Shown: positions 6,341-38,812, numbered from the stretch's first letter. The stretch is 64,000 nt of DNA from Candidatus Poribacteria bacterium (GCA_965205015.1 OZ242029.1:1728001-1792000), one strand, 5' to 3'. Notes: a model not told the origin generated them from the sequence alone. Made by a program: numbers and translations.

Positions 6341-6462
6341 TTTTTAATCATACCTTGCGGTTAAATGGCGTGGTTTTGGACTTTAGCACTGTTTTCCCGA
6401 ATCTGAAGAAATACCCTATCAAAAACACCCCTCCATTTCATTACGAGCTACGCGATTTTAGA

Positions 6463-14014: not shown

Positions 14015-14785
14015 ATGCGGATTAAACTCTTAGCACACCGGGGAGGCATGGGGCGTGCCCCCGAAAACACCCTTGCTTCCTTCAGGCAGGCATTGGCGGA
14101 CGGGGCTGATGGATATGAGTGTGATGTCTGTCTCACCCAGGATAAACAACCCGTCCTAATTCACGTTGGCTTCAACCGACACAGTATTCGGGAAGCGACG
14201 GGATGCTCTGAATCCCTCAGTGAACTGACTTGGAAAGAGGTCCAGCAACTAACCATGGAGGCATCTAATGAACCTGTTGCCCACCTTGATGATGCCCTCC
14301 GTTTCACACGAGAAAACCAAATGCCGTGCTTCCTTGAACCGAAGACGGACACACCAGAATTACTCCCAATCCTCGTAGAACGGATCCGCCATTTTGAAGT
14401 CGTTCATCTTGTCAATATTCTCACGTTTTACTTCCGAAAGCATCTGCTTGTGGAAGCGAAGCGTTTAGAACCGAAGTTGCAGACGAGTGCCATTCTCATT
14501 AATCCGGCGGCGAACTTCCTCAAGGCGAGGACGGCTATTGATGCAGATCGCATCATCTTAGGCTGGAGTGGGATTAATCACTTCGGGCTTTATAACACGT
14601 TCACACGGACGGTTACGCGCCAAGTCAAGCAGCTCCAGGCACATGGGATCGCTGTAGATGCCGGGTTTATTCTGACAGCGCAGGATGTCGCTTGGGCGGT
14701 TTCGCCGCAGAAAGCAGGGGGTGTTGATGGCTTGTGGGCGGACGATGTGCCTTACATCAGACGGTGTCTCCAAGAGATTTTTTAA
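14015..14785 (+). CDS. Glycerophosphodiester phosphodiesterase family protein
   Basis: AHRGG...PENTLASF...GADGYECDV...IH; C-terminal GVDGLWAD. Confidence 0.88.
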   Translation: MRIKLLAHRGGMGRAPENTLASFRQALADGADGYECDVCLTQDKQPVLIHVGFNRHSIREATGCSESLSELTWKEVQQLTMEASNEPVAHLDDALRFTRENQMPCFLEPKTDTPELLPILVERIRHFEVVHLVNILTFYFRKHLLVEAKRLEPKLQTSAILINPAANFLKARTAIDADRIILGWSGINHFGLYNTFTRTVTRQVKQLQAHGIAVDAGFILTAQDVAWAVSPQKAGGVDGLWADDVPYIRRCLQEIF

Positions 14786-15411
14786 GTTTCCGTGTACCAT
14801 GCAATAGATTCGTTTTGGAGGTAGGGAAGCAGCAGACTCTGGAGTTTCCGACGTGCGTGGTGCAGGTATGTTTTAACCGTGCTCTCCGACTTGCCCAAGC
14901 GTGATGCAATCTCCTTTATCGGGAGTCCCTCCCAGTGACGCAAGTAAAAGGCACTGCGTTGAATAAGAGGCAGCTGGTAGACGGCTTTACGGATGATGTG
15001 TTCGAGTTCTTTCCTTTCGAGAAGTGTACAAGGCGAAGGTTGCACCTCGGCCATTTGAAGTGTATCGTCTGCGTTCTGAGGTAATTCCTCGAATCCTATA
15101 ATATGTTGTTTATTTCGTTTGCGGAGAAAGTCAATGCTACGATTGACGGCAATTTGGTAAAGCCAACTGTAAAATACGCATTGTCCCTTGAAGTTAGGCA
15201 ATGCCTGCCACGCCTTCAGGAAGACCTCTTGGCAGAGGTCTTTCGCTGTTTCTCGATCCCGAACTTTGCGATAAATCAGATTATAGATTTTTTGTTGATA
15301 TTTGTAAACGAGTGGGTTAAACGCCTCTGTATCGCCATTTTGGGCGCGCGCGACAAGTTCCGCCTCGTCGAAATCGTTGAGTTCAGTGTGTGTTGTTAAA
15401 GCACTTCTCAT
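14782..15411 (-). CDS. ECF RNA polymerase sigma factor
   Basis: ATG at 15411 avoids overlap with the upstream gene. AFNPLVYKY, DLCQEVFLKAW, FYSWLYQIAVN (region 2); EIASRLGKSESTVKTYLHHARRKL (region 4). Confidence 0.92.
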   Translation of the reverse strand: MRSALTTHTELNDFDEAELVARAQNGDTEAFNPLVYKYQQKIYNLIYRKVRDRETAKDLCQEVFLKAWQALPNFKGQCVFYSWLYQIAVNRSIDFLRKRNKQHIIGFEELPQNADDTLQMAEVQPSPCTLLERKELEHIIRKAVYQLPLIQRSAFYLRHWEGLPIKEIASRLGKSESTVKTYLHHARRKLQSLLLPYLQNESIAWYTET

Positions 15412-15445
15412 ATTTTTCTCCTTATGGATATCTTTGGTGCGTATC

Positions 15446-16855
15446 CTATTCGATCCATTGCATTGTTTCTCGAAGGTGTTCCTTTGCTTTCGCATAATCT
15501 CGGCGAGCTTGATAAAAGACACGTTGTGCCACTGTAAATTGTGCTTGTGTTTCAAACGCATCGTTATAAGTCATATTTTGATATCCGGGTATTTCAACCG
15601 TGACTTCATCGAGCACGCGTTCTATGGTTCGTAGCCTTTGCTCAAAAATTCTCACGCGTGTTTCTTCGATCTCCGCCCGTTCTTTGGCATTCGCCACGGC
15701 ACGGTAAGCACGTCGCACCTCTACACGGATTGACTTTGTTTTTTCGACGTACTCCAACTGAAGTCGTTCAAGTTCTGCGAGTTCTACGGCGCGAAGATTT
15801 TTCGTTTTGTTCCCATCGTATAACGGAATGTTGAAGTTGAAACGCAGTTCCCACCCATCTTGTGTCCGCGGACGGGTTTGAAAAAGACTTGATGCATCTC
15901 GCTCACGGTCGAGTATCACCGGATCGTAGAGTGCCTTTGCGTCCCAGGTCTGGTTCTGTTGGTGTTGTTCCAGCAGCACATGAAGGTCCTTGTAACGGGC
16001 TTCAGCGGAGAGTTCGGGAAATCGATTCCAGATTGTCTCCGCGGCGAGCCGCTCTTGACGCACGATAGTGCCCTGTAAGTCGTGTAAATCCAGGTTGTTT
16101 GCGAGTGCGAGTTCAACTGCCTTCTCTAATGTCATGTCGTCCTCAGAAAGAGGGTGTGAGAGCATAACTTGTGCCAGTGGATCGAGTCCGGTGAGACGAA
16201 TGAGTTCCGCGGTGTCTACATCAAGCCTACGCTGCAGCTCATTGAGAGCAAGCTGCTGCTCGGAGAGTTCAAGTTCCGTGTTGAGGCGACTGAGGAAAGG
16301 GATCCGTTTTTCTGCGTGCCTGATTTGTGTGCCTTTCAGTTTTTTATTGAGTTCTACCTCAATCGCACGCCGTTCCTGAATCTCTTCCTGTGTAAGGATG
16401 ATATTGTTCCAGAGATTACGAACATCGTGAACGCTCTGCTTTTTGGCGCGTTCGTATTCAATCTCTGCCTTGCGGACCTCCTCCTGTGTGGCATCAAGGG
16501 CTTCGGGGATCTCACCGAATTGGGCGAGCAGCATACTTGCTTGTGCGCGGGTGAGGTAGTCTCTTTCATCAATATCGCCATTTTTTTGGCGTTGATATTC
16601 ACCCGTGACGCCCACTTGTGGGAGGTAAATGGCTTTGGACACACGGAGGTTTGCCTTGGCGCGTTCCACCACTTTTTCCGCCTTTTTCACCGTTTCATTG
16701 TTTTGTAGCGCGAGTTCGATTGCACGTGCCGGCTGAAGTACGACCATCCGCTGTGCTGAGACGGTGCTCCCAATGGTAAAGAATAGGCAGATCGCTAATA
16801 CTTTTGTTAACTTCTTATTCACTACTATCTCCATATATTGGTTATCGGAAACCAC
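15446..16855 (-). CDS. TolC-family outer membrane efflux protein
   Basis: Signal peptide; two repeats AIELALQNN...LPQV and LEKAVELALANN...FPEL; FNIPLYDG. Confidence 0.8.
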   Translation of the reverse strand: MVSDNQYMEIVVNKKLTKVLAICLFFTIGSTVSAQRMVVLQPARAIELALQNNETVKKAEKVVERAKANLRVSKAIYLPQVGVTGEYQRQKNGDIDERDYLTRAQASMLLAQFGEIPEALDATQEEVRKAEIEYERAKKQSVHDVRNLWNNIILTQEEIQERRAIEVELNKKLKGTQIRHAEKRIPFLSRLNTELELSEQQLALNELQRRLDVDTAELIRLTGLDPLAQVMLSHPLSEDDMTLEKAVELALANNLDLHDLQGTIVRQERLAAETIWNRFPELSAEARYKDLHVLLEQHQQNQTWDAKALYDPVILDRERDASSLFQTRPRTQDGWELRFNFNIPLYDGNKTKNLRAVELAELERLQLEYVEKTKSIRVEVRRAYRAVANAKERAEIEETRVRIFEQRLRTIERVLDEVTVEIPGYQNMTYNDAFETQAQFTVAQRVFYQARRDYAKAKEHLRETMQWIE

Positions 16856-16861
16856 TATTTC

Positions 16862-19201
16862 TCAACGTCTGCTGATACGGATTGTAACGATAACAATTCC
16901 AATCATCAGGAGTATTAACGCACCGAACAGCAACGTCGTCACCGACATTTGCGTCTGAGACTCCACTTGCACTGTGATTGATCGGTCGCGTGCCTCAAAC
17001 TTACGGTTATCCACGGTGACTTCGGCGTTCAACTTCGCTTGATATTCCCCCACGCCGATGTCCGCAGGTGGACTCAACGTCAGTTGGATCTCTGTCTCCT
17101 CGTTCCGGCTGAGTGAACCGATGACTTCAGGGATAACCGTGTATTTCCAATCCGTGTTGACATCGACGAGCATACGAATGTCCACGAGATCCCGGGTGCC
17201 GATATTCTTGAGCGTCGCTGTCATGTTCACCTCTTCGCCGATTTTAATCGTCTGGAAGGCGTTCGGCACGAATACCTCAATCTCCGGGACACCCTTTGGA
17301 ATTAATTCGAACCGTTCGACACCGCCTTGGATACTCGCAATCCTATCGGCAGGTAAATCCAAGCGATTGTTGACACCCCCGAGCTCATTTGCCTCGGCGT
17401 CATCGAGCACAGCGACGTAGAACTCAAGCGTGCTATCGAGGTAGGACGCATCCAATTCTTCTGGAAGATAGACAATCAACGATAGATTCCGTTTTGACTG
17501 TTCCTGCGTAAATTTTACCTGAGACTGCCGGGATTTCGTCTCTGGGTCTTGGAATTCAAAGTTGATGCGGTTGAGGAGGTTAATGACGCGGAGTTGGAAG
17601 GTGTTCTCCGTTTCTGCCAACCGGTCGAGCGTCAAATCGTAGGTGACGCTGCTTCCCAAGTTCCCTTCCTGCGAAAAGCGGAGCGAACTGACGTTTACCA
17701 CATCCAACGCCGACTCTTTTTGCAGATAGATAAGGCGTGTATCGGGTTCGACAAGTTCGGGGTACTTCAGCGATACCTTCAGACTTTCCACATCTTTCTG
17801 GAGTTGGAAGGTCAAATCCACGGTTTCGTTGTAACCGAGCACCGGGATCTTCTCTTCGTAGGGTTTGACGATGTTCGTGTCATCCGTAACGTCGAGTAAA
17901 GAGACATAGATAGCGCGGATCTCATTTGCTGCTGCAATCTCCTCAGGGGTCGCATCACTCGGCATTGCCTCAGTCGTGGACGTATTTTTCAGTTGGATCG
18001 TCACCATCATTTGGTTGTCAACGCGAAACTTCTTCGCACTCAGGATGGAGATATGGCGAGTATCCTCCTCAAGATGGATTTTATAGGGGATTTCCCGATC
18101 AAGGTAGTTCAGACTCACAGTGAGGTTATCCACATTGCGTCTCAGTTCAAAATCGAGCGTTTTCTCCTGTCCATCTCTCAATGCCGGAATGCGGTGTTCG
18201 TAAGGAAAACCGATGATAGATTCCGTGTCGTCTTTGATAGAGACGTAGACGTTGTTGATTTCCTGTGCGGTGTTGGTGTCTATTTCCTCTGTTTCACCTG
18301 TAATCACCCCGTACGTAAGGACGACTTCCAAACGCCGCCGGTCCCCCTGTTTGTAACGTCTCGCAGAGACCACAGAAATATACGGATCCTCCTGTTTGAG
18401 GTGGATGTTCTTCTGTTCCTCACGTCCCGAGTACTTCAACTCGACGACGACATCCCGCACGTTCTCTTTTATGAGTTCAAACTCCAGTGTGACAGACTCC
18501 CCTTCTTTGAGCGTCTCAATCCGTTGCTCGTAAGGTTCGGTGATAGTTGCCCCGCTTGTGCCATAACCTTCCTGCTCTTTAATCTCGACGAAGATGTCGT
18601 CAATCTGGGCACTAATGATAATTTCTCGTCCCAGCACTTTCGAGCTTTCAACGAGTTTGACGGGAGACGAACTATTCCGCAAGGTAATTGAGAACAGCTC
18701 CCGACCATCGGCGGATTCATAGAGCCTTGTTTTTTCAACGGTGATGTGCCACTCATCTTTCAGGGAATCAAGTTCCGTCTGTTGCAGCGTCAGCTTTGCC
18801 TGTTCATATTCATCGACGGCGCGTTCGTAAGCCTCCTCTGCGATATTCACTTCGGAGACGGTGACGATGTTATTTTCCTCCATCATCATCGCCTTGAGAT
18901 TTTCGAGGTCCACCTGCTTCTTATCCATTAGCTTTTTTGCCAATTCCATCTTCAGGCGATCGATTTCTATCAGGATTTGACGGTTTTGTTCCTCTTTCGT
19001 TTTCGGGCTGTTATCGTCAACAGGTGGAATCTCTTCTGACGCTGCTGCCAATGGAACAGGCAGTGATACCCCTATTGCACTCATAAATATCAGTGCAAAC
19101 ATCAAAGATTGAAAGATTGGAAAGTTGAAAGATTGGAAGGGTGGGGACCCTATCTTTCCATCCTTCCATCTGTCCTTTCCATACTTTTTCCATCCATCCA
19201 T
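16862..19201 (-). CDS. Exported protein with coiled coil, three tandem novel repeats, a NEW3-like Ig domain and a C-terminal TM anchor (start may be ATG at 19102)
   Basis: Signal-like segment; repeats containing IxxPYExxIxxLxxxxxxxLxFxL; LKNIGTRDL...W...P...L..P..IGVGEY NEW3-like region; C-terminal hydrophobic helix ending ISRR. Confidence 0.75.
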   Translation of the reverse strand: MDGWKKYGKDRWKDGKIGSPPFQSFNFPIFQSLMFALIFMSAIGVSLPVPLAAASEEIPPVDDNSPKTKEEQNRQILIEIDRLKMELAKKLMDKKQVDLENLKAMMMEENNIVTVSEVNIAEEAYERAVDEYEQAKLTLQQTELDSLKDEWHITVEKTRLYESADGRELFSITLRNSSSPVKLVESSKVLGREIIISAQIDDIFVEIKEQEGYGTSGATITEPYEQRIETLKEGESVTLEFELIKENVRDVVVELKYSGREEQKNIHLKQEDPYISVVSARRYKQGDRRRLEVVLTYGVITGETEEIDTNTAQEINNVYVSIKDDTESIIGFPYEHRIPALRDGQEKTLDFELRRNVDNLTVSLNYLDREIPYKIHLEEDTRHISILSAKKFRVDNQMMVTIQLKNTSTTEAMPSDATPEEIAAANEIRAIYVSLLDVTDDTNIVKPYEEKIPVLGYNETVDLTFQLQKDVESLKVSLKYPELVEPDTRLIYLQKESALDVVNVSSLRFSQEGNLGSSVTYDLTLDRLAETENTFQLRVINLLNRINFEFQDPETKSRQSQVKFTQEQSKRNLSLIVYLPEELDASYLDSTLEFYVAVLDDAEANELGGVNNRLDLPADRIASIQGGVERFELIPKGVPEIEVFVPNAFQTIKIGEEVNMTATLKNIGTRDLVDIRMLVDVNTDWKYTVIPEVIGSLSRNEETEIQLTLSPPADIGVGEYQAKLNAEVTVDNRKFEARDRSITVQVESQTQMSVTTLLFGALILLMIGIVIVTIRISRR
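19109..19200 (+). repeat. GGAAGATT/TTCCATCC-type short-period inverted array (copies also at 53691-53772 and 56659-56743)
   Basis: Run of ~8-nt units (ttgaaaga, ttggaaag, ttggaagg) followed by complementary ttccatcc units. Confidence 0.75.
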
Positions 19202-19228
19202 ATTTTTACCCTTCTAACCCAGTTCGGT

Positions 19229-19954
19229 TTAAGCTTCTTCAGGTTCGTATCCGGCAACATAGTGCAAATACAATGCCTCAAGATCCTCTTGTTGAATCTC
19301 TTCGCGCGTCAACTCACGTTCAAGGTTGCCTTCCACGAGGATGCCGATCCTGTCGGCGATCTCTTTCGCACGGAAAATGTCGTGCGTTGACATGAAGATG
19401 GCTTTCCCTTCCTCCTTCAACTCGCGGAGCAGATTCAGGAAATCCGCACCCCCCTTCGGATCCAAGCCCGAAGTCGGTTCATCGAGAAGGACGGCTTGTG
19501 CGTTTTTCATAATCGCAATGGCAATACCCAAGCGTTGACGCATCCCTTTGGAGAAGGTCTTAACACGCCGTGTAAAGGCTTCCTCCGGTAGACCGACACG
19601 TCCAAGTGTCGCATCGAGCTCCTCGTTCGATACCTTCTTGCGTCCACCGAGTTTTGCGAAAAAAGACAGATTTTGCCGCGCCGTAAAGTTGCGATAGAGT
19701 TCGACGTTCTCCGAGACGTAAGCGAGATGCTTCTTTGCCTCCAGTGGGAACTTCGGAATCTCAATATCGCCTATCAGTGCGGTGCCGCTTGTGGGTTCGA
19801 TGAAGTTCAGGAGCATAGAGATGGTTGTGCTTTTCCCAGCACCGTTCGCGCCGAGGACAACATAGATTTCGCCATCGTCTACTTTCAGGTTCAACTTGTT
19901 GACGGCTAAAACACTTTCGTTATAGACTTTCGTGAGCTCACGAGTTTCTAACAT
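19229..19954 (-). CDS. ABC transporter ATP-binding protein
   Basis: GANGAGKST, FSKGMRQR, LLDEPTSGLDP, STH; AGGAGG RBS. Confidence 0.95.
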   Translation of the reverse strand: MLETRELTKVYNESVLAVNKLNLKVDDGEIYVVLGANGAGKSTTISMLLNFIEPTSGTALIGDIEIPKFPLEAKKHLAYVSENVELYRNFTARQNLSFFAKLGGRKKVSNEELDATLGRVGLPEEAFTRRVKTFSKGMRQRLGIAIAIMKNAQAVLLDEPTSGLDPKGGADFLNLLRELKEEGKAIFMSTHDIFRAKEIADRIGILVEGNLERELTREEIQQEDLEALYLHYVAGYEPEEA

Positions 19955-20611: not shown

Positions 20612-22174
20612 TCACACATCTGAACGGATGAAGACTAAGAAGGCACCTGAAAGAAACACACCAAGCAATAAAACGAGTAGCAGCATATCCACTATCGCTG
20701 CATTGAAGGTATCACTAAAGGTGATCTTATCCTCAAAACTTGGAAGTGCCTGAGGTGAAATCGGCTTTTTAGACATTCCCTCAGGGACTCCGATGATATG
20801 GGGGCTCTCTGTATCAGCGCGATCGGTTTCAGTGATGAAGTTTCGGAACTGTCTGATATGAAGATGCACACCTTCAAGGAATTGCAAGTGCCGATTTAAT
20901 CCGGTACCTGTCATTGATTCAAGAGCATATTGGACGATCGCTGCGGGCGAGAACCGGGTCACCATCCTTGCGCGCTGTACCTGCGCGAGTTGTGCCGTTA
21001 AATGTTCACGGTTCAGCCGTTCCCGAATCTCAACATCTTTGTTGACGAGTTCAGCCCTGATGTGCAATTCCTCCACATCTGCCTTTTGGGATTCCAATTC
21101 TGCTATCGCCAATCTGATTTCTTCCTCGTTCTCCTTCGCCAGTTTTTCCGCCGCTTCAGGCGAGGTTTTCCAAAGTTCCTGAAGTCTATGGAGAAGGCTA
21201 CCCGCTGGTAACTGTGCCTCCTGTTTGTTCTGCATTCGCTCGTCAAAATTTGCGTTAATCTGCTCAAGCGCGCTCCTTTTTGCCATTTCTCGTTGGTGAG
21301 CGGTCTGAACGGGTGGCGTCCATTTCGTGGCAAGCGTGCCGAGGGTAGAAGGCATAAAGACGACGAGTGCTACCCAGACAATCAATAACACGACAAGACT
21401 GATTCGGCTATCGCGCGTGCTGGCGGAGACCATTAACCCTACTGCGATGAAGATACTGGCGTATCCTGAAGCAATTAGCATAATCATTCCCAAACGTCCC
21501 CAGTCCGCCGCCCCGAGTTGTGTCCAACTATCTAAAGAGATCACCGCCAGATTCAACAGTACGGCGAAATAGAATGGGATGAGAATGGTTATCAGGGCGC
21601 CTAAGAACTTTCCGACTAACAACGCCGGGCGGGAAATTGGGTTCGCGAGACATAACCGAAGCGTCCCCCTTTCTCTTTCGCCGGAGAGCGCATCAAACGT
21701 GAACAAAAGTGGGATGAAAGAGAGCAGATAGGTGATGATAAATACCCAGTCTATCTTTGTTGCTTTCGGACGCAGGTCCCGCGCATTCGGGTTGGCAGTA
21801 GGATAGTCCACCGACCAGATGCTTTTTACCTGGCCACCGGGTCCCGCCGTTCTACTCCAAGACCCCCAATTTGTTGTTCCCGATCCCGGCAGAAACGCAT
21901 CGCCCCGGTCTGCAATGAAAGTCAGCGCGGAGGGACGTTTGTAAAGTCTACCGGGTCCTTTTTTCAGGAGCTGATAGAGTTCCGTTTGGGACTGCAATTT
22001 GTTTTGGTCGGTGGTAACTTTCTCAGAATACCGTCGGACCTTGTCTGGGTGGTTCTGAAGATGCACCACAGCGTTAGTTACCATGAGTGCCACCAGAATA
22101 AGGGTAGTTAAGGCAAAGCGGAGACTGTTGAGATGGTCAAAGAATTCTCTTTTAACGATATGTCCGATCATCAT
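20612..22174 (-). CDS. ABC-2 type transporter permease subunit
   Basis: IVKREFFDHL, FDALSGERERGTLRLCLANPISR...GKFLG, six TM segments; AAGGAG RBS before ATG at 22174. Confidence 0.9.
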   Translation of the reverse strand: MMIGHIVKREFFDHLNSLRFALTTLILVALMVTNAVVHLQNHPDKVRRYSEKVTTDQNKLQSQTELYQLLKKGPGRLYKRPSALTFIADRGDAFLPGSGTTNWGSWSRTAGPGGQVKSIWSVDYPTANPNARDLRPKATKIDWVFIITYLLSFIPLLFTFDALSGERERGTLRLCLANPISRPALLVGKFLGALITILIPFYFAVLLNLAVISLDSWTQLGAADWGRLGMIMLIASGYASIFIAVGLMVSASTRDSRISLVVLLIVWVALVVFMPSTLGTLATKWTPPVQTAHQREMAKRSALEQINANFDERMQNKQEAQLPAGSLLHRLQELWKTSPEAAEKLAKENEEEIRLAIAELESQKADVEELHIRAELVNKDVEIRERLNREHLTAQLAQVQRARMVTRFSPAAIVQYALESMTGTGLNRHLQFLEGVHLHIRQFRNFITETDRADTESPHIIGVPEGMSKKPISPQALPSFEDKITFSDTFNAAIVDMLLLVLLLGVFLSGAFLVFIRSDV

Positions 22175-22184
22175 ATTTCTCCTT

Positions 22185-23660
22185 TTACACTTCAACTTTG
22201 ATAAAAATCAGAAATGTCACCATAAACAGGATCAGATTCATAAGGAAAAGAAGGGACACATCCGTAAGGGCGCGTTGTGCGTTCTCCGAGACATCCGCCC
22301 GCGCAAAGCGAAACCTTGGCAAATCCCACCAATCCACTGGCCCTTGGTCAGAGGCAAACCACTGTCGACTCGCAAACGCATCTTTGTCGCGGAAATAGTT
22401 AATGAGTGTTTGACGGTATCCTTGCGTGGCGTGGATAAAGTCTAACATACCATTTAGATCCGTGCCTGCCCAGGCGGATGTTGAAAATGCATATAAACTT
22501 GCGGGACTGAACTTCATCAACCGTTTATCCCACGTTGCTTGCCGGATGTCTGTCCGCGCCAAGCGTTGTTCGCGTATCAACGCAGCTTTTTCTGCCAGAC
22601 GGATGTGCGTCGCACCGATGAATGCCTGATACTTTTGGAAATGCGGGACGGACGGCTCCGAATCCGCGTTCACTTTGGTCATATTGAACCCATACCTTCT
22701 GCCACTACGAGCGCTTGACCCTGAATATCCTATGTTAAACCTGGGGGGCTCCCCCGCAAGCGGACTATTTGCTAAGAACCGCTGTTCTTCCCGATCGGCT
22801 TCTTCCCAAATCTGTTCAATCTGTTGACTTGCCGACTGTCTTTCGGCGCGCATATCGCCCACCGGATTGATGGCGAACCGACTCCAGTTCGGATAAACGA
22901 GGACCAAACCGACCCATAAGAACATGCAGAGCATCAAAGATGTAGCCGTGCGGCGGGTTGTCGTGGAAATCAATAGTCCGATGAGGTAGAAAACGGATAA
23001 GTAGACAGTGGTCGTCCAGACTATCCCCCCGATCCGGAGCAAATCCGCTGTGCTGAGCTGTATTGAACTGGCAAGGGAGCACAAAATCAGCACCATCAGC
23101 AGACTCATTAGCACGGGCAGCAGCAAGCATATCATGGCGGCGATATATTTCGCAAATAGAATGGACCCGCGTCGCACTGGATGTGAGATAACCAGACGTA
23201 AGGTACCGCTTTCCCAATCGCCTGCAATCGCATCGTAAGCGAAGAGTAAGGCGAGTAGGCTTAATATAACTTGAAAGATGGACACCAGATCAATCTGTGA
23301 AAAAAGATTGAGATACGGGTTCTCCAGGTTTCGTGCGGAGACACTTGAGAGCACCGGCACTTCCCCGTGATAAATTTCGACGGTCGTTCCGAGTCGCTTA
23401 TCTAATCCTGCACTAAAGAGAGTTAGGGGGTTCGGAGGGCGTTCAACAAAGATTTCTAATCGCGAATAGGTTTCCGCTGCCACCGCTTTCTCACGATGAA
23501 CTTTCTCTTGCTGGCTATAGCTCGCCACTCGGTTTTCGTGCGCATCAATCAGCACAACGGTATTGGCGACGACAAGCAGGAGCGTAATCACGACTGCGGT
23601 AAAGAATCGCGCGCTCATCAGATGCGTGAGCAGTTCTTGGCGTATCAGGGTGCGTAACAT
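22185..23660 (-). CDS. ABC-2 type transporter permease subunit
   Basis: LIRQELL, YDAIAGDWESGTLRLVISHPVRR...AKY. Confidence 0.9.
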   Translation of the reverse strand: MLRTLIRQELLTHLMSARFFTAVVITLLLVVANTVVLIDAHENRVASYSQQEKVHREKAVAAETYSRLEIFVERPPNPLTLFSAGLDKRLGTTVEIYHGEVPVLSSVSARNLENPYLNLFSQIDLVSIFQVILSLLALLFAYDAIAGDWESGTLRLVISHPVRRGSILFAKYIAAMICLLLPVLMSLLMVLILCSLASSIQLSTADLLRIGGIVWTTTVYLSVFYLIGLLISTTTRRTATSLMLCMFLWVGLVLVYPNWSRFAINPVGDMRAERQSASQQIEQIWEEADREEQRFLANSPLAGEPPRFNIGYSGSSARSGRRYGFNMTKVNADSEPSVPHFQKYQAFIGATHIRLAEKAALIREQRLARTDIRQATWDKRLMKFSPASLYAFSTSAWAGTDLNGMLDFIHATQGYRQTLINYFRDKDAFASRQWFASDQGPVDWWDLPRFRFARADVSENAQRALTDVSLLFLMNLILFMVTFLIFIKVEV

Positions 23661-23708: not shown

Positions 23709-25382
23709 TCACCGGATGGAGATATGTGCTCGAAAAGCGTTGATACTTTCCTGCTCATCAACCCAACCCCCAGTCGCTCTCAATTGAAAAACCTGTCCTT
23801 TGTCAAATTGATATATGATTGTTCCTGTTTCACCGGGTTGGATCCCCCATACATGTGCGAGCGCGCCTTTAGATATTCCTTTTGTCGAGAATTCGCTATT
23901 ACCATCGAAGAGATCAAACGAACCTATAAGGGCTGCCCTCCCGACTTGAATATCAATGGTGAGCACGCCACCGTTTTCAAATGCTGTGGCATCAATTTCT
24001 ACAACGGTGTGATCTTGAGAGCCTGCCTCAGCGGTGCGGAAAGTGTCTAATATCTCTATTGAAGGTTGCACAGGATTGAGGGAAATATTGCGACTGCTTG
24101 ATAAAGAGACCCGATCTTTCTCACCCAATCCGGGACGTTTTCCTGTTAAGGCTTCTACAAGGAACAACTGATAGTGTTCTGCTTTCTTGTGCCACTTGTG
24201 CGGGGAGAGTTCATTGACGGCTTGCCTGCCCATGAGTTCAAGTTCGGACGAGATAACCAAACAATCTGTAGGTGAATGTCTCTTCCACGCCCGAACGATT
24301 GTTTGGAGCAAGGAAGACATTTCGTCAATACCTTTTGCATCGCGCAAACGTCTTATATCGGTGTTAAGTACCCATGTGTTGACAAAATTTTCATTCAAGA
24401 ATTTGATGTTCCCATCATCAGAGAGAGCGACTGCCCTCAAATTTTTGCCGCTCGCGCCACAGGCTTCGTCATCAAGCGGACCATTGATTGAAATAACATG
24501 AATGGGCTTCTGTTGTGTCTTTGCTATTTCCAACACTTCGTCTACCGATACCCAATTGATTTGTTGTGATTTGTAGAAACGTAGTATCAGGACACGCTCG
24601 GCTTCTTCTACAGTTATTGCTTCGGAAAATTGCGTGTCTTGAATTATATCTTCTGAACCGGTACGGAGTTCGATTTGTGGACAAAAGCCGGTATCCGCCC
24701 CAAAAGAGGGACCGGCACCATGGTATCGGTTGACATCGAAGTTGAGTGTTCCCTCAGGAACGTACATCTGGAAGAAGGCGATTTTCTTTTCTACTCGATC
24801 GATAACGAGATTCCCAGTAAATTGTGAGGGTGTGAACCAGCCGTTCGCTAACCTGAACTCCGCATGAATACGGAATACGATGTCGGCAAATTCAGCATTG
24901 TAAGCGCGCAAGCACGCCCACATTCCGCGTGAATCTCCGTGATTGATGTGCATATCCAGATTGGGATTGGGGTGAAGTTGTCTCAACAGCTCCAGTACCC
25001 CGTTTTGTTCAATCTGCCAGACTTCGCCGACAGAAACACTGTTTCCTCGGTTTGGAGGATTTTCGCGAAAAAGTCTCTTCAATCCCGGCAAGAACGGTTT
25101 TTCTTTTCCCTTCTGCAGGCGGGCTTCAGTCGGGAGAAACGCCTGAAACACTGAAGTAGGATGGTGCTTTTCAGGCTCAGCGACTCGCAGATGTGCCAAT
25201 GTATCCCACGTCACATGGAAGTTGTCTCGGGTGTACTCGATTGGGGCAATGAAGCCTTTAACCAACACTTTGGCGTTGTTGTCAAGCGTGAGAACAATTC
25301 TGTTAGAAGTAGATACTTCATCCGCGAACCCATGTTGCAAAGACAAGATAAAAATCAGGCAACCGATACCGAATGTTTTCAT
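23709..25382 (-). CDS. Exported selenoprotein N-like protein, non-Sec paralogue (C-G-A-S-G-K) with shared C-terminal domain
   Basis: Signal peptide; VFRIHAEF, WFTPSQFTG, GPLDDEACGASGKNLR...LNENFVNTW, collinear with animal SelN and with the 26932-28836 gene. Confidence 0.85.
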   Translation of the reverse strand: MKTFGIGCLIFILSLQHGFADEVSTSNRIVLTLDNNAKVLVKGFIAPIEYTRDNFHVTWDTLAHLRVAEPEKHHPTSVFQAFLPTEARLQKGKEKPFLPGLKRLFRENPPNRGNSVSVGEVWQIEQNGVLELLRQLHPNPNLDMHINHGDSRGMWACLRAYNAEFADIVFRIHAEFRLANGWFTPSQFTGNLVIDRVEKKIAFFQMYVPEGTLNFDVNRYHGAGPSFGADTGFCPQIELRTGSEDIIQDTQFSEAITVEEAERVLILRFYKSQQINWVSVDEVLEIAKTQQKPIHVISINGPLDDEACGASGKNLRAVALSDDGNIKFLNENFVNTWVLNTDIRRLRDAKGIDEMSSLLQTIVRAWKRHSPTDCLVISSELELMGRQAVNELSPHKWHKKAEHYQLFLVEALTGKRPGLGEKDRVSLSSSRNISLNPVQPSIEILDTFRTAEAGSQDHTVVEIDATAFENGGVLTIDIQVGRAALIGSFDLFDGNSEFSTKGISKGALAHVWGIQPGETGTIIYQFDKGQVFQLRATGGWVDEQESINAFRAHISIR

Positions 25383-25407
25383 TTTGAGAGATCCAAAAAA
25401 AATGAAC

Positions 25408-25474
25408 AGGATTTACACACCCTTTGCTGGCGAGGTTTGAAACCTCACCCGGCGTTGGGCAGTCCGTAGGTCCT
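25408..25474 (+). mobile_element. Degenerate copy of the MITE-like element at 46402-46494
   Basis: AGGATTTACAC...GCTGGCGAGGTTTGAAACCTC...CGTAGGTCCT. Confidence 0.55.
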
Positions 25475-25503
25475 ATTGGAAATAAAGTGTACCTGCTGGG
25501 GGG

Positions 25504-26826
25504 TTACCGAATGGAAATTCGTGCGTGAAAAGCATTGACGCTCCCTTTCTCACTAAACCAATCGCCGGTAGCCCCTAATTGAAAGACTTGGGCTTGATCG
25601 AACCGATAAGCGATTATTCCTGTTCCACCGGGCGGAATTCCCCATTCATGCGCGAGGGCTTTGTTAGGGAAGCCTTCAGTCGTAAGTTCACTGTCTCCCC
25701 TAAATAGATCGAATGAACCCGAGGCTTTGCCACTGCCGACCCGGATATCAATGGTTAACATGCCGCCAGCTTCAAACGCCGTGGCATCAATTTTGACAAC
25801 AGTATAATCCTGATGCCCTCTTTCGGGTGTCCGAAAAAAGTCTAATATTTCTGTTTGAATTTGCTGTGCTTTTTCTATTTGTGCTTGTGTCTCCTGCGTT
25901 TGCGGGCCTGTTACCCGCAGGATGTCTGCTTGCGGATTGGATCTGCTATTCTTTCCCGACATGTCCATCTTTCCCAGTTGTGTTCTCACAGCAGGTTTGG
26001 CTTTAATGATGGGTTCCAGCGTTGCCTCTACAATGTCAACCTTTATAGCAGGGATTGTCTCTAAACTGTAGGGGTGCTGGAAACGGGATAGGTATTCATT
26101 GCTTACGCCAAGCATGAGTGTCGCCAAAATAGCGATTGACGCCGCTATCGCCCATGGCACTACAGGTTTGCCATTTGTAGGAGGAACAGGTTTGATGCGG
26201 TTGGCTTCTCGTATAATATTCTCAGTTAGGTTGGCTGGCAATTGTACACTACTGAGTACTTCACTAACCAAAAGTTCTTCGCCTTGTGTCTGCAAACGCT
26301 TTCGCGCACGGCTAAGCCTACTTTTAATTGTGTTCGCCGATACACCCAAAAATTTGCTAATATCCTTCACTTTCATTTCGCCAAGGTAGTGGAGCGTCAC
26401 GACCGTACGTTCGCTCTCCGGCAGCCTTTGCAGAAGTCTTTTGACGATTTCATGTCGTTGTTCAGTCGTTTCCACGTCGAGCTGCTCCGATACATGATGG
26501 GTATAAGAGGCTTCTTCTATTTCTTCCACAGGTGTGTCCTCCAGCGATTGCATCATATATCTGTTCCTTTGAATCCAATTAATACAGAGTCGATCTACAA
26601 TGACATAAAGCCATCCAGCGAACTGATTGGGATCTTTTAGTGTTGAGAGTTTTTTGTGTACTTGAAGGAAAGCATCTTGCGTAATTTCTTCAGCGAGATG
26701 AAAGTCCCCAAGCTTGCGCCACGCCAGCGCGTGAACGCTCTTCTGATGTTTTCGGACCAATGCACCGAATGCCTCTTCATCCCCTGACAAAATTTTATGA
26801 ATCAGTTGAACATCGTTTTCTTCCAT
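25504..26826 (-). CDS. Membrane-anchored ECF sigma factor with a C-terminal extracytoplasmic domain
   Basis: Regions 2 and 4 (AEEITQDAFL, FAGWLYVI, ISKFLGVSANTIKSRLSRARKRL); TM helix VVPWAIAASIAILATLMLGV; C-terminal domain shared with both flanking SelN-like proteins. Confidence 0.9.
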   Translation of the reverse strand: MEENDVQLIHKILSGDEEAFGALVRKHQKSVHALAWRKLGDFHLAEEITQDAFLQVHKKLSTLKDPNQFAGWLYVIVDRLCINWIQRNRYMMQSLEDTPVEEIEEASYTHHVSEQLDVETTEQRHEIVKRLLQRLPESERTVVTLHYLGEMKVKDISKFLGVSANTIKSRLSRARKRLQTQGEELLVSEVLSSVQLPANLTENIIREANRIKPVPPTNGKPVVPWAIAASIAILATLMLGVSNEYLSRFQHPYSLETIPAIKVDIVEATLEPIIKAKPAVRTQLGKMDMSGKNSRSNPQADILRVTGPQTQETQAQIEKAQQIQTEILDFFRTPERGHQDYTVVKIDATAFEAGGMLTIDIRVGSGKASGSFDLFRGDSELTTEGFPNKALAHEWGIPPGGTGIIAYRFDQAQVFQLGATGDWFSEKGSVNAFHARISIR

Positions 26827-26931
26827 CGGAATACTTCCTTTATGCTGTGCGTTCTTCTATCTGTTCAGATTGCGGGTTGCGAAATTTTCCCAGTCGCCAC
26901 CCTCAATAAATTACCCATTCTGCGGTTTGAA

Positions 26932-28836
26932 TCACTTGTTATCATAAATGAACCACACACCCTCCACTTTTCGCATCTTAACAGATATCTCCGGCGGCTG
27001 CGCCATCGGCATTTTTAATCGAAAGTGGAATTCATCACCCACATATTCGCTGCTCAACACCTCCATCTGACTTAACATTTGACGCACCTGAGGACGCATA
27101 TCCGCTGGCACATCCTCAAAATCATTTTCAAATGTTTCTCTGGCATCTCCTGTAAGCATCGAGCGTAGTGTCTCTGAATCGAGATTCTTAAATGCTTCCA
27201 CGAAAGCGTTCATCGTATCTTCCGCAGATTGCTCCGGGCGCGCTGATGACGCTTTTCTCGGCTCTGGTTTCCGATTCGGTTCGACAGAGATTTTTGCCCA
27301 AAAAGCGTTGACCAACCCTTTCTCACTGGACCAATTGCCGGTTACCCCCAACTTAAAGGGCTGCCCTCGGTCAAAAGGATGAACGATGTGTCCGCTCATG
27401 CCCGGCTCAATTTCCCACGCGGAAACCAGCGCATTATCAGGTATACCTGTCGTGGGAAGTTCCGTGTCTCCGGCGAACAGATCGAACGAACCCGGCACCT
27501 CGCCGTTGCCCACCCAGGTATCAATGGTAAGTGTACCGCCGTCTTCAAACAGTGTGGTGTCAATCTCAACGGTTGTGTAATCCTGATTGCCATGACCGGG
27601 CGCGCGAAAAATGTTCAGGATCTCCATTGAGGTTCGCTGAGCGTTGAGGGCGACGTGTCGGCTACTACCCAATCCGGGACGTTTCCCTTCTAATGATTCC
27701 ACGAGAAACCGTTGGTAAGCCTCGTCTATGTAGCGCATCGCATTGAATAGGTCATTGACCGGTTGACGTCCCATCAGTTCCAGATCGGGCGATATCACCA
27801 AACAATCTACCGGAGAATACCGCTTCCACCCACTAATAATTGTTCGTGCCAAGGGCTGCATTCCGTCAATTCCCTTTGCTTCACGTAATCTTTTCATATC
27901 GGTGTTCAGCACCCAGGTGTTGACAAACTTTTCGTTGAGCGATTCGATGATTCGGTCATTGGAGAGGACAACTGCCCTCAAGGTTTTTCCACTCCCTCAG
28001 CACGCCTCGTCGGTGAGGGGTCCATTGATCGAAACCACATGAATCGGCTTTCGCAGCGATCTTGCTATCTCTAACGCTTTGTCCATCGCTACCCATTTGA
28101 TTTGTTCCGACTTATAGAAACGGTGTATCAGTCTACGTTCCGCTTCTTCTTGGGTGATGGCTTGGGTGAATTGCGTGTCTGACGTGATAGCCTGTGTACC
28201 AGCAAGGAGTGATATTTGAGGACAAAAGCCGGCATCCGTACCGAAGTAGCGACTATTCTCGTGTTTCCGGTTCACATCGAAGTTGAGGGTGCCTTCAGGG
28301 ACGTACATCTCAAAGAAGGCGACTTTCGCCTGCGGACGGTCAATAACCAAACGACCGGCAAACTGGGACGGGGTGAACCAACCGTCCGCTAAGGCAAATT
28401 CTGCATGGATGCGAAACACAATTTCGGCAAAGAGATCATTGTAAGCGCGAAGCGTTGCCCATAACCCTGAGGAATCCACAGGACTGTGCATCTCCACGTA
28501 TGGGTTGGGGTGAAGTTGCTTCAGCAATTCCAGAATGCCCTCCGGTTTAACGTGCCACAGTTCGCCCACGGAGACAGGCTGATGCGGAAGAAATGCTTGA
28601 AAAACCGACGCTGCATATCGCTTTTCTGGTTCAGCGACTTTCAAGTTCGCTAATGTGTCCCAATTCACATGAAAGTTGTCGACTGTATACGCAATCGGAG
28701 CGATGAAGCCTTCGACGGAGACTTCTGACGTGCTGTCAAGGGTAAGTGTGATTTTGTTAGGTGTGGTGTTCTCATCAGCGTGAAGTTGTCCACTCATCAT
28801 CACCAGAATGAGAAATCCAATCGTTAGTGTTTTCAT
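26932..28836 (-). CDS. selN: Selenoprotein N-like exported selenoprotein (Sec at TGA 27999-27997; 634 aa), with the shared domain and a C-terminal NTF2/DUF4878-like domain
   Basis: Two track ORFs are in frame across one TGA: GPLTDEAC-TGA-GSGKTLRAVVLS...LNEKFVNTW, versus animal SelN [22 protein letters not shown]...LNESFISTW. The adjacent paralogue is continuous across this site, and a hairpin follows the TGA. Confidence 0.9.
27961..27999 (-). promoter_or_regulatory. Putative bacterial SECIS element
   Basis: UGA-GGGAGUGGAAAAACCUU-GAGGGC-AGUU-GUCCUC-UCC: a 6-bp upper stem with a G-containing 4-nt loop starting 23 nt after the UGA. Confidence 0.7.
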
Positions 28837-37219: not shown

Positions 37220-38812
37220 TTACCGAATTAAACTTTTAATCTTCGTTGAAAGGTTCTCTGGATCCAAGTCTATAAACACATCTTTGACGACCAGTTCTCT
37301 ATTTAAAAGGAGGGTTATGAGTTCCGTTTGCGGTTCGGAGGTATCTCGGTTGAGGAGCGTTTGTATATTGAGGAGCGTCTGCATCTGGTCGTTTTTATCC
37401 ATCCAGATGGGCATCGAAAGTTGGTGTCTCTCTTTGAACGCCGCAATCGCCTTCACGGAACCGCTGGTGCTAATCCCAACTGCTTGTAATTGGGGGGCAT
37501 CGTAGTTTGAAAGCCGTTTCTCTATCTGTTTTAACTTCGGCCCACAAGTGGTAGAATCTGGTGAAAAAAGGTTCACAAGGACAAACTTGCCGCGGAGTGC
37601 CTCTAACTTAACGGGTTGTCCTGAAAGGTCAGTCAGCGCGATGTCTGGCATCGGTTTGCCCAATAGGAGTGCCAATTCTTCCTGATCTATAGACACGGGG
37701 GATGTCGGTGTCAATTGCTTGAGCAGTGCTTTTCCTTCTACGGAGTCAAAAAACGCTTCACCCAATTGCTCTTCCAATTGCTCTTTAAGTTTCGCCTCTA
37801 AGTTGTCCGAGGGATGGATTTGGAAGGTGATCCTTTTTACCATTTTGGGGTTCTTGAGCAGCTGCGCTTCCATTTGCTTTCTGACTTCTGCGGGTAAACC
37901 CTCCGGCAGTTGCGTTTGGGTGGAAATCATTTTTACGATTGTTCTGTCATAGATGTTTCTTTGCGGTCCGTTTCGATAAAGTTTTCCACTGACGCTTAGG
38001 TTCAGCAGATGATGCTGGCAGCGCACGATGGGTACCATATCGCCCTCTATTTCCAATAGAAATTCCTGTCCTGCCTTCTGTTCGGGACGAAATTCATAGA
38101 GATAACTACACGGCAGGATCGGGTCCGATGCACCTTCGGTGAGAACTCCTGGACTTCCTGCTGTTGGATCCGCAGGACAAAGTAGCACTTTTTTCTTCAG
38201 GTATTCTGGAGAAAGTTCGGAAAGCCATTGCGGTTCCGTCCCTACCTCAGCGCGGTGGTTTTCGAGAGCAAGCTGTATTTGTCTTAAATTCTCTCGGCAG
38301 GTCTGAATCTCTTTGGAATTGTCAAGGGGCTGTTTTTCTGAGGGTGAGGCTAACTCATAAGGGTAGAGGTCTGCTAAGAGGAGGCGGTTCAAACGGATTA
38401 AATCTCCACCGCTTTGCGGATTTCGCGCAAGGAGCTCTTGGGTCTGTTCACTGAGTTCGATATTAGCAAGATGTTGTGCATCGTAGAGGGAGGGAACCTG
38501 GAGCAATCGGTTCAAGTCGTCGAGCAGTGCTTTCTGAAAAGCCGGGGAAGGGATACTTATACCATCATATGCATCCAGCAGCCTCTGGGTCTCCGCAGAC
38601 AATTGTGTGGCTATAGGTTTGGATACCGCAGCGCGCGGGTCTTGAAGTTTCACTGCCAAGCTGCCGGGATCTTTAAGATCTTTACTGTGAAACAGAAGTT
38701 GATTTCCATCTGCGGGGACAACTGAAGTCAGACTCAGTAGGATGGCAATCAGAAACGTTGCGATTGTGTTCAGTAGGACGCGAACCTTCAATCGTCCGAG
38801 TGTGTCTGGCAT
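37220..38812 (-). CDS. Exported protein with a C-terminal TlpA/redoxin-like domain (SxxC site)
   Basis: Signal peptide; GKPMPDIALTDLSGQPVKLEALRGKFVLVNLF-SPDSTTC; the central CRENLRQIQLAL...LLCPAD...CSY segment resembles pseudopilin/DUF1559-type segments. Confidence 0.75.
   Translation of the reverse strand: MPDTLGRLKVRVLLNTIATFLIAILLSLTSVVPADGNQLLFHSKDLKDPGSLAVKLQDPRAAVSKPIATQLSAETQRLLDAYDGISIPSPAFQKALLDDLNRLLQVPSLYDAQHLANIELSEQTQELLARNPQSGGDLIRLNRLLLADLYPYELASPSEKQPLDNSKEIQTCRENLRQIQLALENHRAEVGTEPQWLSELSPEYLKKKVLLCPADPTAGSPGVLTEGASDPILPCSYLYEFRPEQKAGQEFLLEIEGDMVPIVRCQHHLLNLSVSGKLYRNGPQRNIYDRTIVKMISTQTQLPEGLPAEVRKQMEAQLLKNPKMVKRITFQIHPSDNLEAKLKEQLEEQLGEAFFDSVEGKALLKQLTPTSPVSIDQEELALLLGKPMPDIALTDLSGQPVKLEALRGKFVLVNLFSPDSTTCGPKLKQIEKRLSNYDAPQLQAVGISTSGSVKAIAAFKERHQLSMPIWMDKNDQMQTLLNIQTLLNRDTSEPQTELITLLLNRELVVKDVFIDLDPENLSTKIKSLIR

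Follow-up and report, generated by a model that had tools for sequence, protein, structure and literature searches.

How does a membrane-bound transcription factor come to carry, on the outside, the same domain as the proteins encoded on both sides of it, and what could it be sensing with this domain? The question is raised by a locus of a sponge-associated Candidatus Poribacteria bacterium, which we analyzed within a window of 64,000 nucleotides (nt; the whole stretch of DNA under analysis, GCA_965205015.1 OZ242029.1:1728001-1792000). Three genes follow each other on the minus strand: a SelN-like gene with an in-frame TGA (gene 1), a gene for an extracytoplasmic function (ECF) sigma factor (gene 2), and a SelN-like gene with glycine at the position of selenocysteine (Sec; gene 3). 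We show that gene 2 encodes a tethered one-component ECF sigma factor whose outer domain, a jelly roll, is copied from the C-terminal module of the adjacent secreted SelN-like proteins, and that the stable unit consists of the sigma gene and the SelN-like gene directly downstream on the same strand. The features concerned are as follows (aa, amino acids; AF2, AlphaFold2; pLDDT, predicted local distance difference test; SECIS, selenocysteine insertion sequence; bp, base pairs).

26932..28836, minus strand: gene 1, SelN-like selenoprotein gene, 634 aa if the TGA is read as Sec, with signal peptide, beta-rich N domain, thioredoxin-like domain, jelly roll and a C-terminal tail of ~115 aa
27997..27999, minus strand: in-frame TGA of gene 1, read as selenocysteine 280 directly after Cys279 (TGA contexts in relatives)
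27964..27979, minus strand: SECIS-like 6-bp hairpin GAGGGC AGUU GUCCUC, starting 17 nt after the UGA (alignment of 21 sequences)
27283..27636, minus strand: jelly-roll copy 1, aa 401-518 of the Sec protein (alignment, tblastn)
26935..27282, minus strand: C-terminal tail of the Sec protein, ~115 aa (identity in relatives)
25504..26826, minus strand: gene 2, membrane-tethered ECF sigma factor, 440 aa (family models; orthologs 85-89% identical in loci L001-L006)
26284..26775, minus strand: sigma-2 and sigma-4 regions, aa 18-181 (TIGR02937, Pfam)
26101..26163, minus strand: single transmembrane helix, about aa 222-242 (sequence reading)
25957..26094, minus strand: conserved outer juxtamembrane segment, aa 245 to about 290 (paralog alignment)
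25507..25863, minus strand: jelly-roll copy 2, the sigma ectodomain, aa 322-440 (alignment, tblastn; AF2 pLDDT 97.9)
23709..25382, minus strand: gene 3, SelN-like protein without Sec, 557 aa, conserved downstream partner of sigma (synteny in 6/6 loci; AF2 pLDDT 83.4)
24456..24458, minus strand: GGC (Gly309) at the Sec position (codon comparison with gene 1 and orthologs)
24138..24581, minus strand: thioredoxin-fold domain, aa 268-415 of gene 3 (fold matches of the AF2 model)
23712..24068, minus strand: jelly-roll copy 3, aa 439-557 of gene 3 (alignment; PliG 4dzg Z 13.1 over aa 425-557)

Under translation table 11 gene 1 is split into open reading frames (ORFs) of 279 and 349 aa, while reading the TGA as Sec gives a single frame with U280 in the motif DEAC-U-GSGKTLRAV; its product is 57% identical to that of gene 3 over 556 columns. 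The sharing of one domain by all three genes is real and far beyond chance. The copies, of ~119 aa, are 57-64% identical among the three proteins: the C-terminal ~119 residues of the sigma factor match gene 3 with 76 of 119 residues identical (E 5e-45) and an internal stretch of gene 1 with 69 of 121 (E 6e-42), and a tblastn search of the whole window with the sigma copy recovered exactly three copies (E 2.7e-81 for itself, 9.9e-46 and 2.8e-41), the next match having an E of 0.42. A preliminary description of this locus had already recognized one shared domain in the three consecutive proteins and called it unannotated, and indeed no model in Pfam or NCBIfam matches it; the domain was found at all three places indicated there, although the coordinates required small corrections, the third range (23709-24057) being out of frame.

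The product of gene 2 has the sigma-2 and sigma-4 regions only and matches the ECF model, as is characteristic of ECF (group 4) sigma-70 factors; the matches are Sigma70_r2 (E 1.9e-13), r4_2 (E 1.4e-17) and Sigma70_ECF (E 1e-6) in Pfam and TIGR02937 in NCBIfam (E 1.2e-30, 106.3 bits at a cut-off of 42.9). It contains one hydrophobic helix, which a hydrophobicity scan of the sigma ortholog P0102 places at 220. As read from the sequence, the flanks of the helix are rich in R/K on the sigma side and the jelly roll lies on the far side, and the domain is therefore extracytoplasmic; the 198 residues outside the helix (aa 243-440) include no cysteine. Only ~36 aa separate sigma-4 from the helix, too few for a recognizable anti-sigma domain. 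No anti-sigma family is found among the 16 Pfam matches of the protein at E <= 1, nor in the neighboring ORFs of at least 150 aa, smaller ORFs not having been scanned. These observations support a one-component, membrane-tethered ECF sigma factor with the C-terminal module of the SelN-like proteins as its ectodomain, and they agree with the preliminary description, which had placed the domain behind a transmembrane helix and outside the cytoplasm, had seen no anti-sigma gene and had proposed a one-component tethered sigma. In nine paralogs the residues K220, P221, P224, W225, A226 and G240 of the helix region and Y245, L246, R248, Q250, P252 and Y253 of the outer juxtamembrane segment are invariant, while similarity ends beyond this segment and paralog matches of the sigma query stop at about aa 290-316. 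From this pattern we infer that the juxtamembrane segment is a candidate cleavage or regulatory segment.

Not all three genes belong to the conserved unit. Seven loci from species-representative genomes were compared, all named relatives being Candidatus Poribacteria; six of them (L001-L006) are orthologous, with sigma factors of 85-89% identity, and the seventh (L007) holds a paralog with another ectodomain. The gene order is identical in all six orthologous loci (sigma, domain-bearing SelN-like gene, two ABC-2 permeases, ABC ATPase), and the gap between sigma and the downstream SelN-like gene, 121 nt in the window, is down to 51 nt in relatives. The SelN-like gene upstream of sigma is variable: it is divergent and has the domain in L001, lacks exactly the domain and retains the C-terminal tail in L002, L004 and L005, survives only as a remnant of the tail in L003, and ends before the domain in L006. 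Since sigma and the downstream gene are kept in 6/6 loci, the conserved unit is a pair and not the triad initially described, the domain being present in the upstream Sec gene in 1/6 loci only.

The pairing is also found a second time. In each of the three genomes fetched (G001, G004, G005) a Sec-type SelN-like gene lies directly upstream of a second fusion of sigma, helix and domain, 442-474 aa long and 51-54% identical to the sigma factor of the window. The association of SelN and sigma genes that had been proposed is thus upheld by the pair in 6/6 loci and by the second locus in 3/3 genomes, though not for the upstream member. Phylogenetic analysis of 45 sigma modules placed the two groups that carry the domain in different clades (96 each in the Shimodaira-Hasegawa-like approximate likelihood ratio test, SH-aLRT), and the tree that holds both sigma groups together is 50.4 log-likelihood units worse (p 0.0104 in the approximately unbiased test, p-AU). 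The sigma modules of these loci therefore do not form sister groups; either the jelly roll became joined to a sigma module two or more times, or a module was exchanged afterwards, and both joinings are beside SelN-like genes.

A tree of 31 copies of the domain bears on the age of this event. The domains of the first sigma group (7 rows, support 100/99) are sister to those of the downstream SelN-like proteins (7 rows, 100/98) with moderate support (90/87), and orthologs cluster by gene, not by genome. The domain of the sigma factor is, as this tree indicates, an old local capture. Continuing gene conversion between sigma and its neighbor was considered as well and rejected, as the domain orthologs group by gene. 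The aligned regions upstream of the sigma and the downstream gene share no promoter-like block and only ribosome-binding-site conservation, with ECF-type promoters not having been modelled. The region between the two genes in the window (25383..25503, minus strand) contains a perfect GC-rich inverted repeat of the GGCGAGGTTT/GAAACCTCGCC type. Of the loci compared, only L002 has this repeat as well and the other five lack it, so that it looks like an inserted repeat element.

Copying of a neighbor's domain is a tendency of a whole family to which this sigma factor belongs. The paralog in L007, of 977 aa, has the same sigma part, linker, helix and juxtamembrane segment, with a Sortilin/BNR-type propeller outside. 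Residues 1-320 of the sigma factor were matched 80 and 81 times at E <= 1e-10 in two complete genomes (G001 and G005), and dozens of these matches span aa 1 to about 300 with 46-61% identity in open frames of 440-1290 aa. In G001 the surroundings of 40 sigma matches were fetched, and 41 ORFs align through the membrane helix, so the family has at least 41 members there. About 31 of these 41 share the propeller ectodomain and 10 carry others; the other ectodomains in the family are lectin, Reg_prop, inactive-M16, AhpC/TSA and unassigned ones (e.g. L083:8001-10151). For five of the ten non-propeller fusions a non-sigma gene within 8 kilobases shares the ectodomain, namely the jelly roll twice (64% and 53% identity), lectin/CarboxypepD_reg (47%, with ten neighbors), Reg_prop (64%) and M16_C (58%).

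If the domains are shared, it is possible that they also touch. Prediction of a complex between the domain of the downstream SelN-like protein and the sigma ectodomain scored 0.65 (runs 0.67, 0.65 and 0.60), against 0.01 for the best of three controls, and so passed the mark of the method; this mark is reached by 58 of 80 solved complexes and by 2 of 110 mismatched pairs, counts which are rough, own alignments being used here. The runs agree on 100% of contacts, with partner pLDDT >= 89, and the predicted interface is two-fold symmetric, formed by residues 6-9, 41-45, 79 and 109-113 of each domain; on the sigma side it includes ILDF, RVGSG and VNAFH, with several of the best-conserved positions. 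The model supports the possibility that the two domains bind homotypically. Likeness of interface residues is 9-10 of 15 within the sigma/neighbor pair and 6-8 of 15 across loci, a difference which shared ancestry explains equally well. One protein, P0002 (588 aa, a single member on one 29-kb contig), carries a sigma module, a membrane helix, a sigma-type domain and then a linker and domain of the SelN(Gly) type (72% over 147 aa), a fusion of both putative partners in one chain.

The nature of the partner was examined in the two SelN-like proteins of the window. Both open, as previously noted, with a signal-peptide-like sequence (MKT..., a hydrophobic core, then HA|DE or FA|DE). The TGA of gene 1 is very likely decoded as Sec. 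In the window and ten loci there are 21 distinct D-[DE]-x-C-TGA contexts (TGA plus 54 nt), all with an open conserved frame downstream, and the frame is kept on both sides of the TGA of gene 1 in orthologs and paralogs, so that the conserved in-frame UGA with conserved coding on both sides that marks a bacterial selenoprotein is found across the 21 contexts; SelA and SelB are present in 5/5 related Poribacteria genomes. The SECIS-like hairpin starts 17 nt after the UGA in 21/21 sequences. Three of its 6 pairs are invariant and the others show one-sided changes (G-C, G-U, A-U) with no double compensations, a signal confounded by the coding constraint (LRAxxLS) acting on the same bases. Folded as a single sequence, the stretch that follows the UGA does not outperform its shuffles (z 0.02), and the hairpin persists in the Gly gene.

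The AF2 model of the Gly paralog (pLDDT 83.4) has a thioredoxin fold at aa 268-415, for which the VIA wide matches are DsbH 2ju5 (Z 12.5, rmsd 4.0, 125 aligned), 3f9u (Z 11.8), AGR3 3ph9 (Z 10.9), DsbD-C 1vrs (Z 9.9), UAS 2dlx (Z 9.6) and UAS 2ec4 (Z 8.7). In this model the Cys-Gly dyad, Cys-Sec in relatives, lies between strand 294-299 and helix 313-319, which is the CxxC position. In Foldseek with the whole protein the jelly roll dominates, and the thioredoxin part surfaced only with VIA wide; none of the listed fold matches covers the N-terminal domain (aa 30-250). By language-model features the nearest cluster to the Gly paralog in the ESM Atlas is "Selenoprotein N" of eukaryotes (0.92, 206 of 256 features), while the N domain alone retrieves only unnamed bacterial hypothetical clusters. 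Word-indexed sequence searches returned no eukaryotic protein among 61 and 32 matches, and no relative in the PDB was found by sequence at E <= 1. "SelN-like" is therefore used here as a supported lead, membership in SelN itself not being demonstrated.

Gene 3 has GGC where gene 1 has TGA. At this position the orthologs of the downstream gene have TGA in 5/6 loci and GGC in 1/6, therefore the Gly form is a derived loss of Sec and not the fixed design implied by the term SelN(Gly) in the preliminary description. Such losses are not confined to this genome: Gly for Sec (C-G-[AG]-S-G-K) occurs in at least 12 clusters at 90% identity, in full-length and otherwise conserved proteins, and other full-length relatives have Thr (1) or Trp (2), two being without the neighboring Cys (Ser in one, Gly in the other); the relatives with these replacements are P0270-P0283, P0126 and P0323. 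From their sequences the Gly, Thr and Trp forms look like redox-dead derivatives kept for another property. A pseudogene or an assembly artefact as the source of the Gly form was rejected, since at least 12 clusters share C-G-[AG]-S-G-K in conserved full-length proteins. Directly upstream of sigma, no piece is better kept than the ~115-aa tail of the Sec protein: it is 70-81% identical in L002-L005, L008 and L009 and survives in L003, where the rest of the gene has decayed. It gives weak NTF2-like hints, both below cut-off (Tim44-like E 0.17, Rv0361_Cterm E 0.074).

A fold check had been suggested for the shared domain. Its AF2 model, built from a 51-sequence alignment, is an eight-stranded all-beta jelly roll (pLDDT 97.9, predicted template-modelling score 0.90). 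Foldseek matches include p24 GOLD 5gu5 (E 3.9e-8, template-modelling (TM) score 0.56) and the C-terminal domain of Tk-SP 3afg (TM 0.62), within a TM range of 0.56-0.64, and the VIA wide matches are TMED1 GOLD 7rrm (Z 11.3), the Tk-SP jelly roll 3afg (Z 11.1), SIDT2 (Z 11.0), PliG 4dzg (Z 10.8), the ColH collagen-binding domain 3jqw (Z 9.3) and CBM51 (Z 9.1). The list is flat and generic, with 50 chains at Z >= 8 and the best at Z 11.3-10.6; as predicted from the model, it names a fold class of binding modules, neither a family nor a ligand.

The domain is a promiscuous module that lies outside the cytoplasm and is widespread. When a profile built from the three copies was run against 1.84 billion cluster representatives, 323 passed E <= 1e-3, of which 205 also passed 1e-10 and 24 passed 1e-30. 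Among the best 150 representatives 21 have SelN-like parts, 2 a sigma module (one of these a fragment of the membrane-proximal part only) and 127 neither. Most of the 21 start right after the Sec position and are therefore miscalled halves of selenoprotein genes. Pfam finds Peptidase_M56 (BlaR1) in 8 of the best 150, caspase C14 in 6, TonB_C, Lcl_C and TPR_2 in 2 each, and TIR, S9 and others once each. In 7 of 10 checked representatives the domain follows the M56 region, starting about 90-130 residues past the M56 match. Related genomes have 6-12 domain matches each, mostly in clusters of SelN-like genes, for example in L011, a tandem array of four to five SelN-like genes with no sigma nearby. 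Because the domain is promiscuous and most domain-bearing SelN-like genes lack an adjacent sigma, the module has a job independent of sigma signalling. A common promiscuous domain with no co-occurrence of SelN and sigma had been considered fatal to the initial proposal; the domain is promiscuous, but within Poribacteria the co-occurrence with sigma holds. In many C-terminal fragments of SelN-like proteins, among them P0031 and P0122 (alignment A5), the jelly roll was also seen twice in tandem.

What, then, does the sigma factor sense? The results suggest that it monitors the neighboring SelN-like proteins or what they bind. As a whole, the reading we prefer, tentatively and ahead of the alternatives below, is that release of sigma is controlled by its pairing with the SelN-like partner. 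The jelly roll would be a self-pairing module, and outside the membrane the copy of sigma would pair with that of the SelN-like protein, or with itself if that partner is missing or occupied. Occupancy would govern a cut in the juxtamembrane segment, followed by intramembrane cleavage, and the freed sigma domains would transcribe the operon of sigma, SelN-like gene and ABC-2 exporter, as modelled on IutY. Because Gly replaces Sec in this genome, the partner here would act as a binder and not as an enzyme. This reading is based on the sharing of the domain, its outer topology, the pair in 6/6 loci, the second locus, the two joinings, the sisterhood in the domain tree, the neighbor rule of the family, the complex model, P0002 and the sensor position in M56 proteins. 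The pairing is real and conserved, and it is the function that we infer from it.

Several observations weigh against pairing-controlled release. In the second locus the SelN-like gene is upstream of sigma, not downstream, all evidence is from one phylum, and duplication of a single pair may have given rise to both loci. Neither a regulon nor a promoter motif nor a protease was identified, and the aligned intergenic regions are without a shared promoter-like block; as the sigma factor has no anti-sigma-like segment, the tether may not inhibit it at all. The contact half of the initial proposal, that homotypic contacts or a shared ligand couple SelN to sigma, is supported by the complex model (0.65 against 0.01), but a close cousin of a true partner also passes such a test, and the predicted contact may be plain homodimerization (SelN with SelN, sigma with sigma). 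The other five of the ten non-propeller fusions of G001 have no neighbor sharing the ectodomain, and five of about 31 propeller sigmas have a "non-sigma" propeller neighbor, at least one such neighbor being itself a sigma paralog. Finally, SelN-like and sigma parts are both absent from 127 of the best 150 representatives of the domain, and most domain-bearing SelN-like genes are without an adjoining sigma, as in the L011 array.

A broader proposal, which we regard as doubtful in its entirety, concerns the family. Poribacteria would have dozens of tethered ECF sigmas per genome that take their outer sensors from adjacent secreted proteins; in the present locus the self-pairing jelly roll would dock on a SelN-like (pseudo)selenoprotein and so gauge the free pool of the product of its own operon, a feedback by domain mimicry, with the Gly form kept as a dedicated co-sensor.

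The alternatives to pairing-controlled release differ in how much of the evidence they accommodate. By analogy with RsgI/SigI, it is conceivable, if on balance unlikely, that the proteins never touch: the jelly roll would bind a substrate or the envelope for the SelN-like enzymes, and the sigma copy would bind the same molecule and switch on the enzymes and the exporter. This is in accordance with the fold neighbors, which are binding modules (GOLD, Tk-SP, PliG, ColH, CBM51), with the domain at the sensor position of BlaR1/M56 proteins, and with the lectin, Reg_prop and M16 domains that other family members copy from their neighbors, and the principle of RsgI is a known one. The flat and generic list of fold matches (50 chains at Z >= 8) names no ligand, however, and common ligand sensing by itself does not account for the confident symmetric interface which the complex model builds from some of the best-conserved residues, nor for P0002, which holds both domain types in one chain.

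It is likewise improbable, to our judgment, that there is no functional coupling, the domain being a generic periplasmic oligomerization or anchoring module captured by local recombination and the sigma sensing something unrelated or nothing. The module is promiscuous enough for this (323 cluster representatives at E <= 1e-3, some of them fused to caspase, TPR, TIR or S9 domains), adjacency eases capture mechanically, the upstream SelN-like gene decays freely, and Sec has been lost in several lineages (Gly, Thr, Trp), with the neighboring Cys changed to Ser or Gly. On the other hand, both fusions and their SelN-like neighbors are intact across orthologs of 85-89% and paralogs of 51-54% identity, placing both sigma groups in one clade is rejected (p-AU 0.0104), the domains cluster by gene, hence there is no continuing gene conversion, and the neighbor rule recurs with three unrelated ectodomains. 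A redox or selenium sensor, in which the seleno-oxidoreductase would pass its redox state to the sigma ectodomain and so report oxidative or selenium stress, as the preliminary description had in mind, is very improbable: the neighbors do have a thioredoxin fold, in which a Cys-Sec dyad occupies the CxxC position, a 530-aa AhpC/TSA-domain protein is encoded upstream (38812..37220) and one family member of G001 has an AhpC/TSA ectodomain, but the outer part of sigma (aa 243-440) has no cysteine and therefore no thiol or selenol relay to sigma is possible, the conserved partner here is without Sec and some orthologs also without Cys, and the shared part is the jelly roll and not the redox domain.

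The pair of sigma and SelN-like gene, for which pairing-controlled release is proposed, sits in a long same-strand envelope locus. In transcription order the AhpC/TSA-domain protein comes first (38812..37220), and the run includes five ABC-2/DUF3526 permeases in all, a DUF3108-like protein and a 237-aa protein, then the three focal genes. Directly syntenic with the pair are the following genes.

23660..22185, 22195..20612 and 19954..19229, minus strand: two ABC-2 permeases with DUF3526 and an ABC ATPase, downstream on the same strand

After the focal genes the same strand encodes the ABC ATPase, then a NEW3-domain protein of 779 aa, a TolC-like outer-membrane efflux protein and, at 15561..14782, another ECF sigma, of the ordinary kind. 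The region 14782..19954 (minus strand), with the ABC ATPase, the 779-aa NEW3/CARDB-like protein, the TolC-like protein and the ordinary ECF sigma of 259 aa, looks like an envelope-spanning ABC-2 export locus together with the permeases. At the head of the run, the protein at 37220..38812 (minus strand) is 530 aa long with a C-terminal AhpC/TSA (redoxin) domain, a domain type that also occurs as the ectodomain of a sigma fusion in G001.

Elsewhere in the window, a DUF790 protein adjoins an XPB/ERCC3-type helicase with a damage-recognition domain (5075..7872, minus strand), neighbors which presumably resemble the XPB-Bax1 pair. A protein of 2276 aa (46852..53682, plus strand) with many bacterial Ig-like repeats (Big_13, Big_3_2, Big_5, CopC-like, FlgD_ig) is probably a giant surface protein, and a 934-aa protein (60582..63386, minus strand) combines a ResIII helicase part with a TnsA-like endonuclease N-terminal domain.

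If the proposed reading is true, it would provide a general recipe for wiring outside signals to transcription, in which a portable module of sigma and helix receives its sensor from an adjacent gene, a recipe seen with four unrelated sensor types in one genome. The results also point to a large family of secreted bacterial SelN look-alikes. To our knowledge, the biochemical function of selenoprotein N in animals is still poorly understood, and a relative with a defined partner and operon could make it testable. They further define a widespread extracytoplasmic domain, with 323 cluster representatives, that is without a Pfam model.

Comparison with known systems can begin with the partner. Like eukaryotic SELENON, the SelN-like proteins have a thioredoxin/UAS-like fold in which G/A-S-G-K/R-x-L-R comes after a Cys-Sec dyad, the motif of human SELENON being SCUG. 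Animal SelN has an endoplasmic reticulum membrane anchor and an EF-hand; unlike it, the proteins of the window are bacterial, secreted by a signal peptide and extended by a C-terminal jelly roll, with many paralogs per genome, and no EF-hand family is found in them in Pfam at E <= 1. With BlaR1/MecR1-type M56 transducers the likeness lies in the jelly roll, which follows the M56 membrane-protease part in 8 of the 150 best representatives, at what we take to be the position of the BlaR1 sensor; their output differs, being a protease acting on a repressor and not a sigma factor. In the CC-licensed PMC and bioRxiv literature nothing was found on bacterial SelN-like proteins, Poribacteria sigma fusions or Poribacteria SelN, nor on tethered ECF sigmas that lack an anti-sigma segment, copy a neighbor's domain and form so large a family, although the supplements of PMC7826278 may list related ECF groups, and a term search of the main text of reviews of prokaryotic selenoproteins gave no mention of SelN or Poribacteria.

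The statement in the preliminary description that no system with such an architecture had been described does not stand, since membrane-fused ECF sigmas of the IutY/ECF243 and ECF52 types are already described (PMC8999054). IutY of Pseudomonas putida (ECF243) is a sigma/anti-sigma hybrid released by Prc and RseP; like the sigma factor of the window, it is a single polypeptide in which one membrane helix links an ECF sigma to an outer sensing part, and removal of the tether activates it (PMC8999054). IutY differs in retaining a FecR-like anti-sigma part and in working together with a TonB-dependent receptor (PMC8999054); the locus studied here has instead ~36 aa between sigma-4 and the helix, no anti-sigma family and a jelly-roll sensor copied from its neighbors. 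ECF48, ECF52 and ECF53 of Actinobacteria, e.g. SCO4117, have C-terminal extensions with transmembrane helices and an outer domain of carbohydrate-binding type, and proteolytic activation has been proposed for them (PMC8999054, PMC5826349). They resemble the window sigma in the C-terminal transmembrane extension and outer domain and differ in a zinc-finger (ZAS-like) segment, a proline-rich region and their phylum, and the passages available from these sources report no neighbor-copied sensor in them. Measured against such hybrids (IutY/ECF243, ECF52 type), the sigma of the window has the outer C-terminal part joined by a transmembrane helix and has neither a FecR-like nor a ZAS/zf-HC2 domain.

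The RsgI/SigI biomass sensors of Clostridium thermocellum are reported to have an outer sensor module akin to modules of the secreted proteins they control, many paralogous systems per genome and RseP-type release. The sensor here is likewise homologous to secreted proteins of its neighbors (57-64%; 5 of 10 fusions in G001), these neighbors being only a presumed regulon. In these sensors the anti-sigma is a protein of its own, RsgI, whose periplasmic domain is autoproteolytic, and SigI falls outside the ECF sigmas, while here sigma and sensor are in one chain, with no separate anti-sigma and no SigI-class sigma. From all these comparisons we can conclude that membrane-fused ECF sigmas and sensing via a module shared with regulated enzymes are already known, and that the present locus differs from them in having no anti-sigma segment, a sensor copied from a neighbor, a family of at least 41 members in one genome and a SelN-like (pseudo)selenoprotein as partner.

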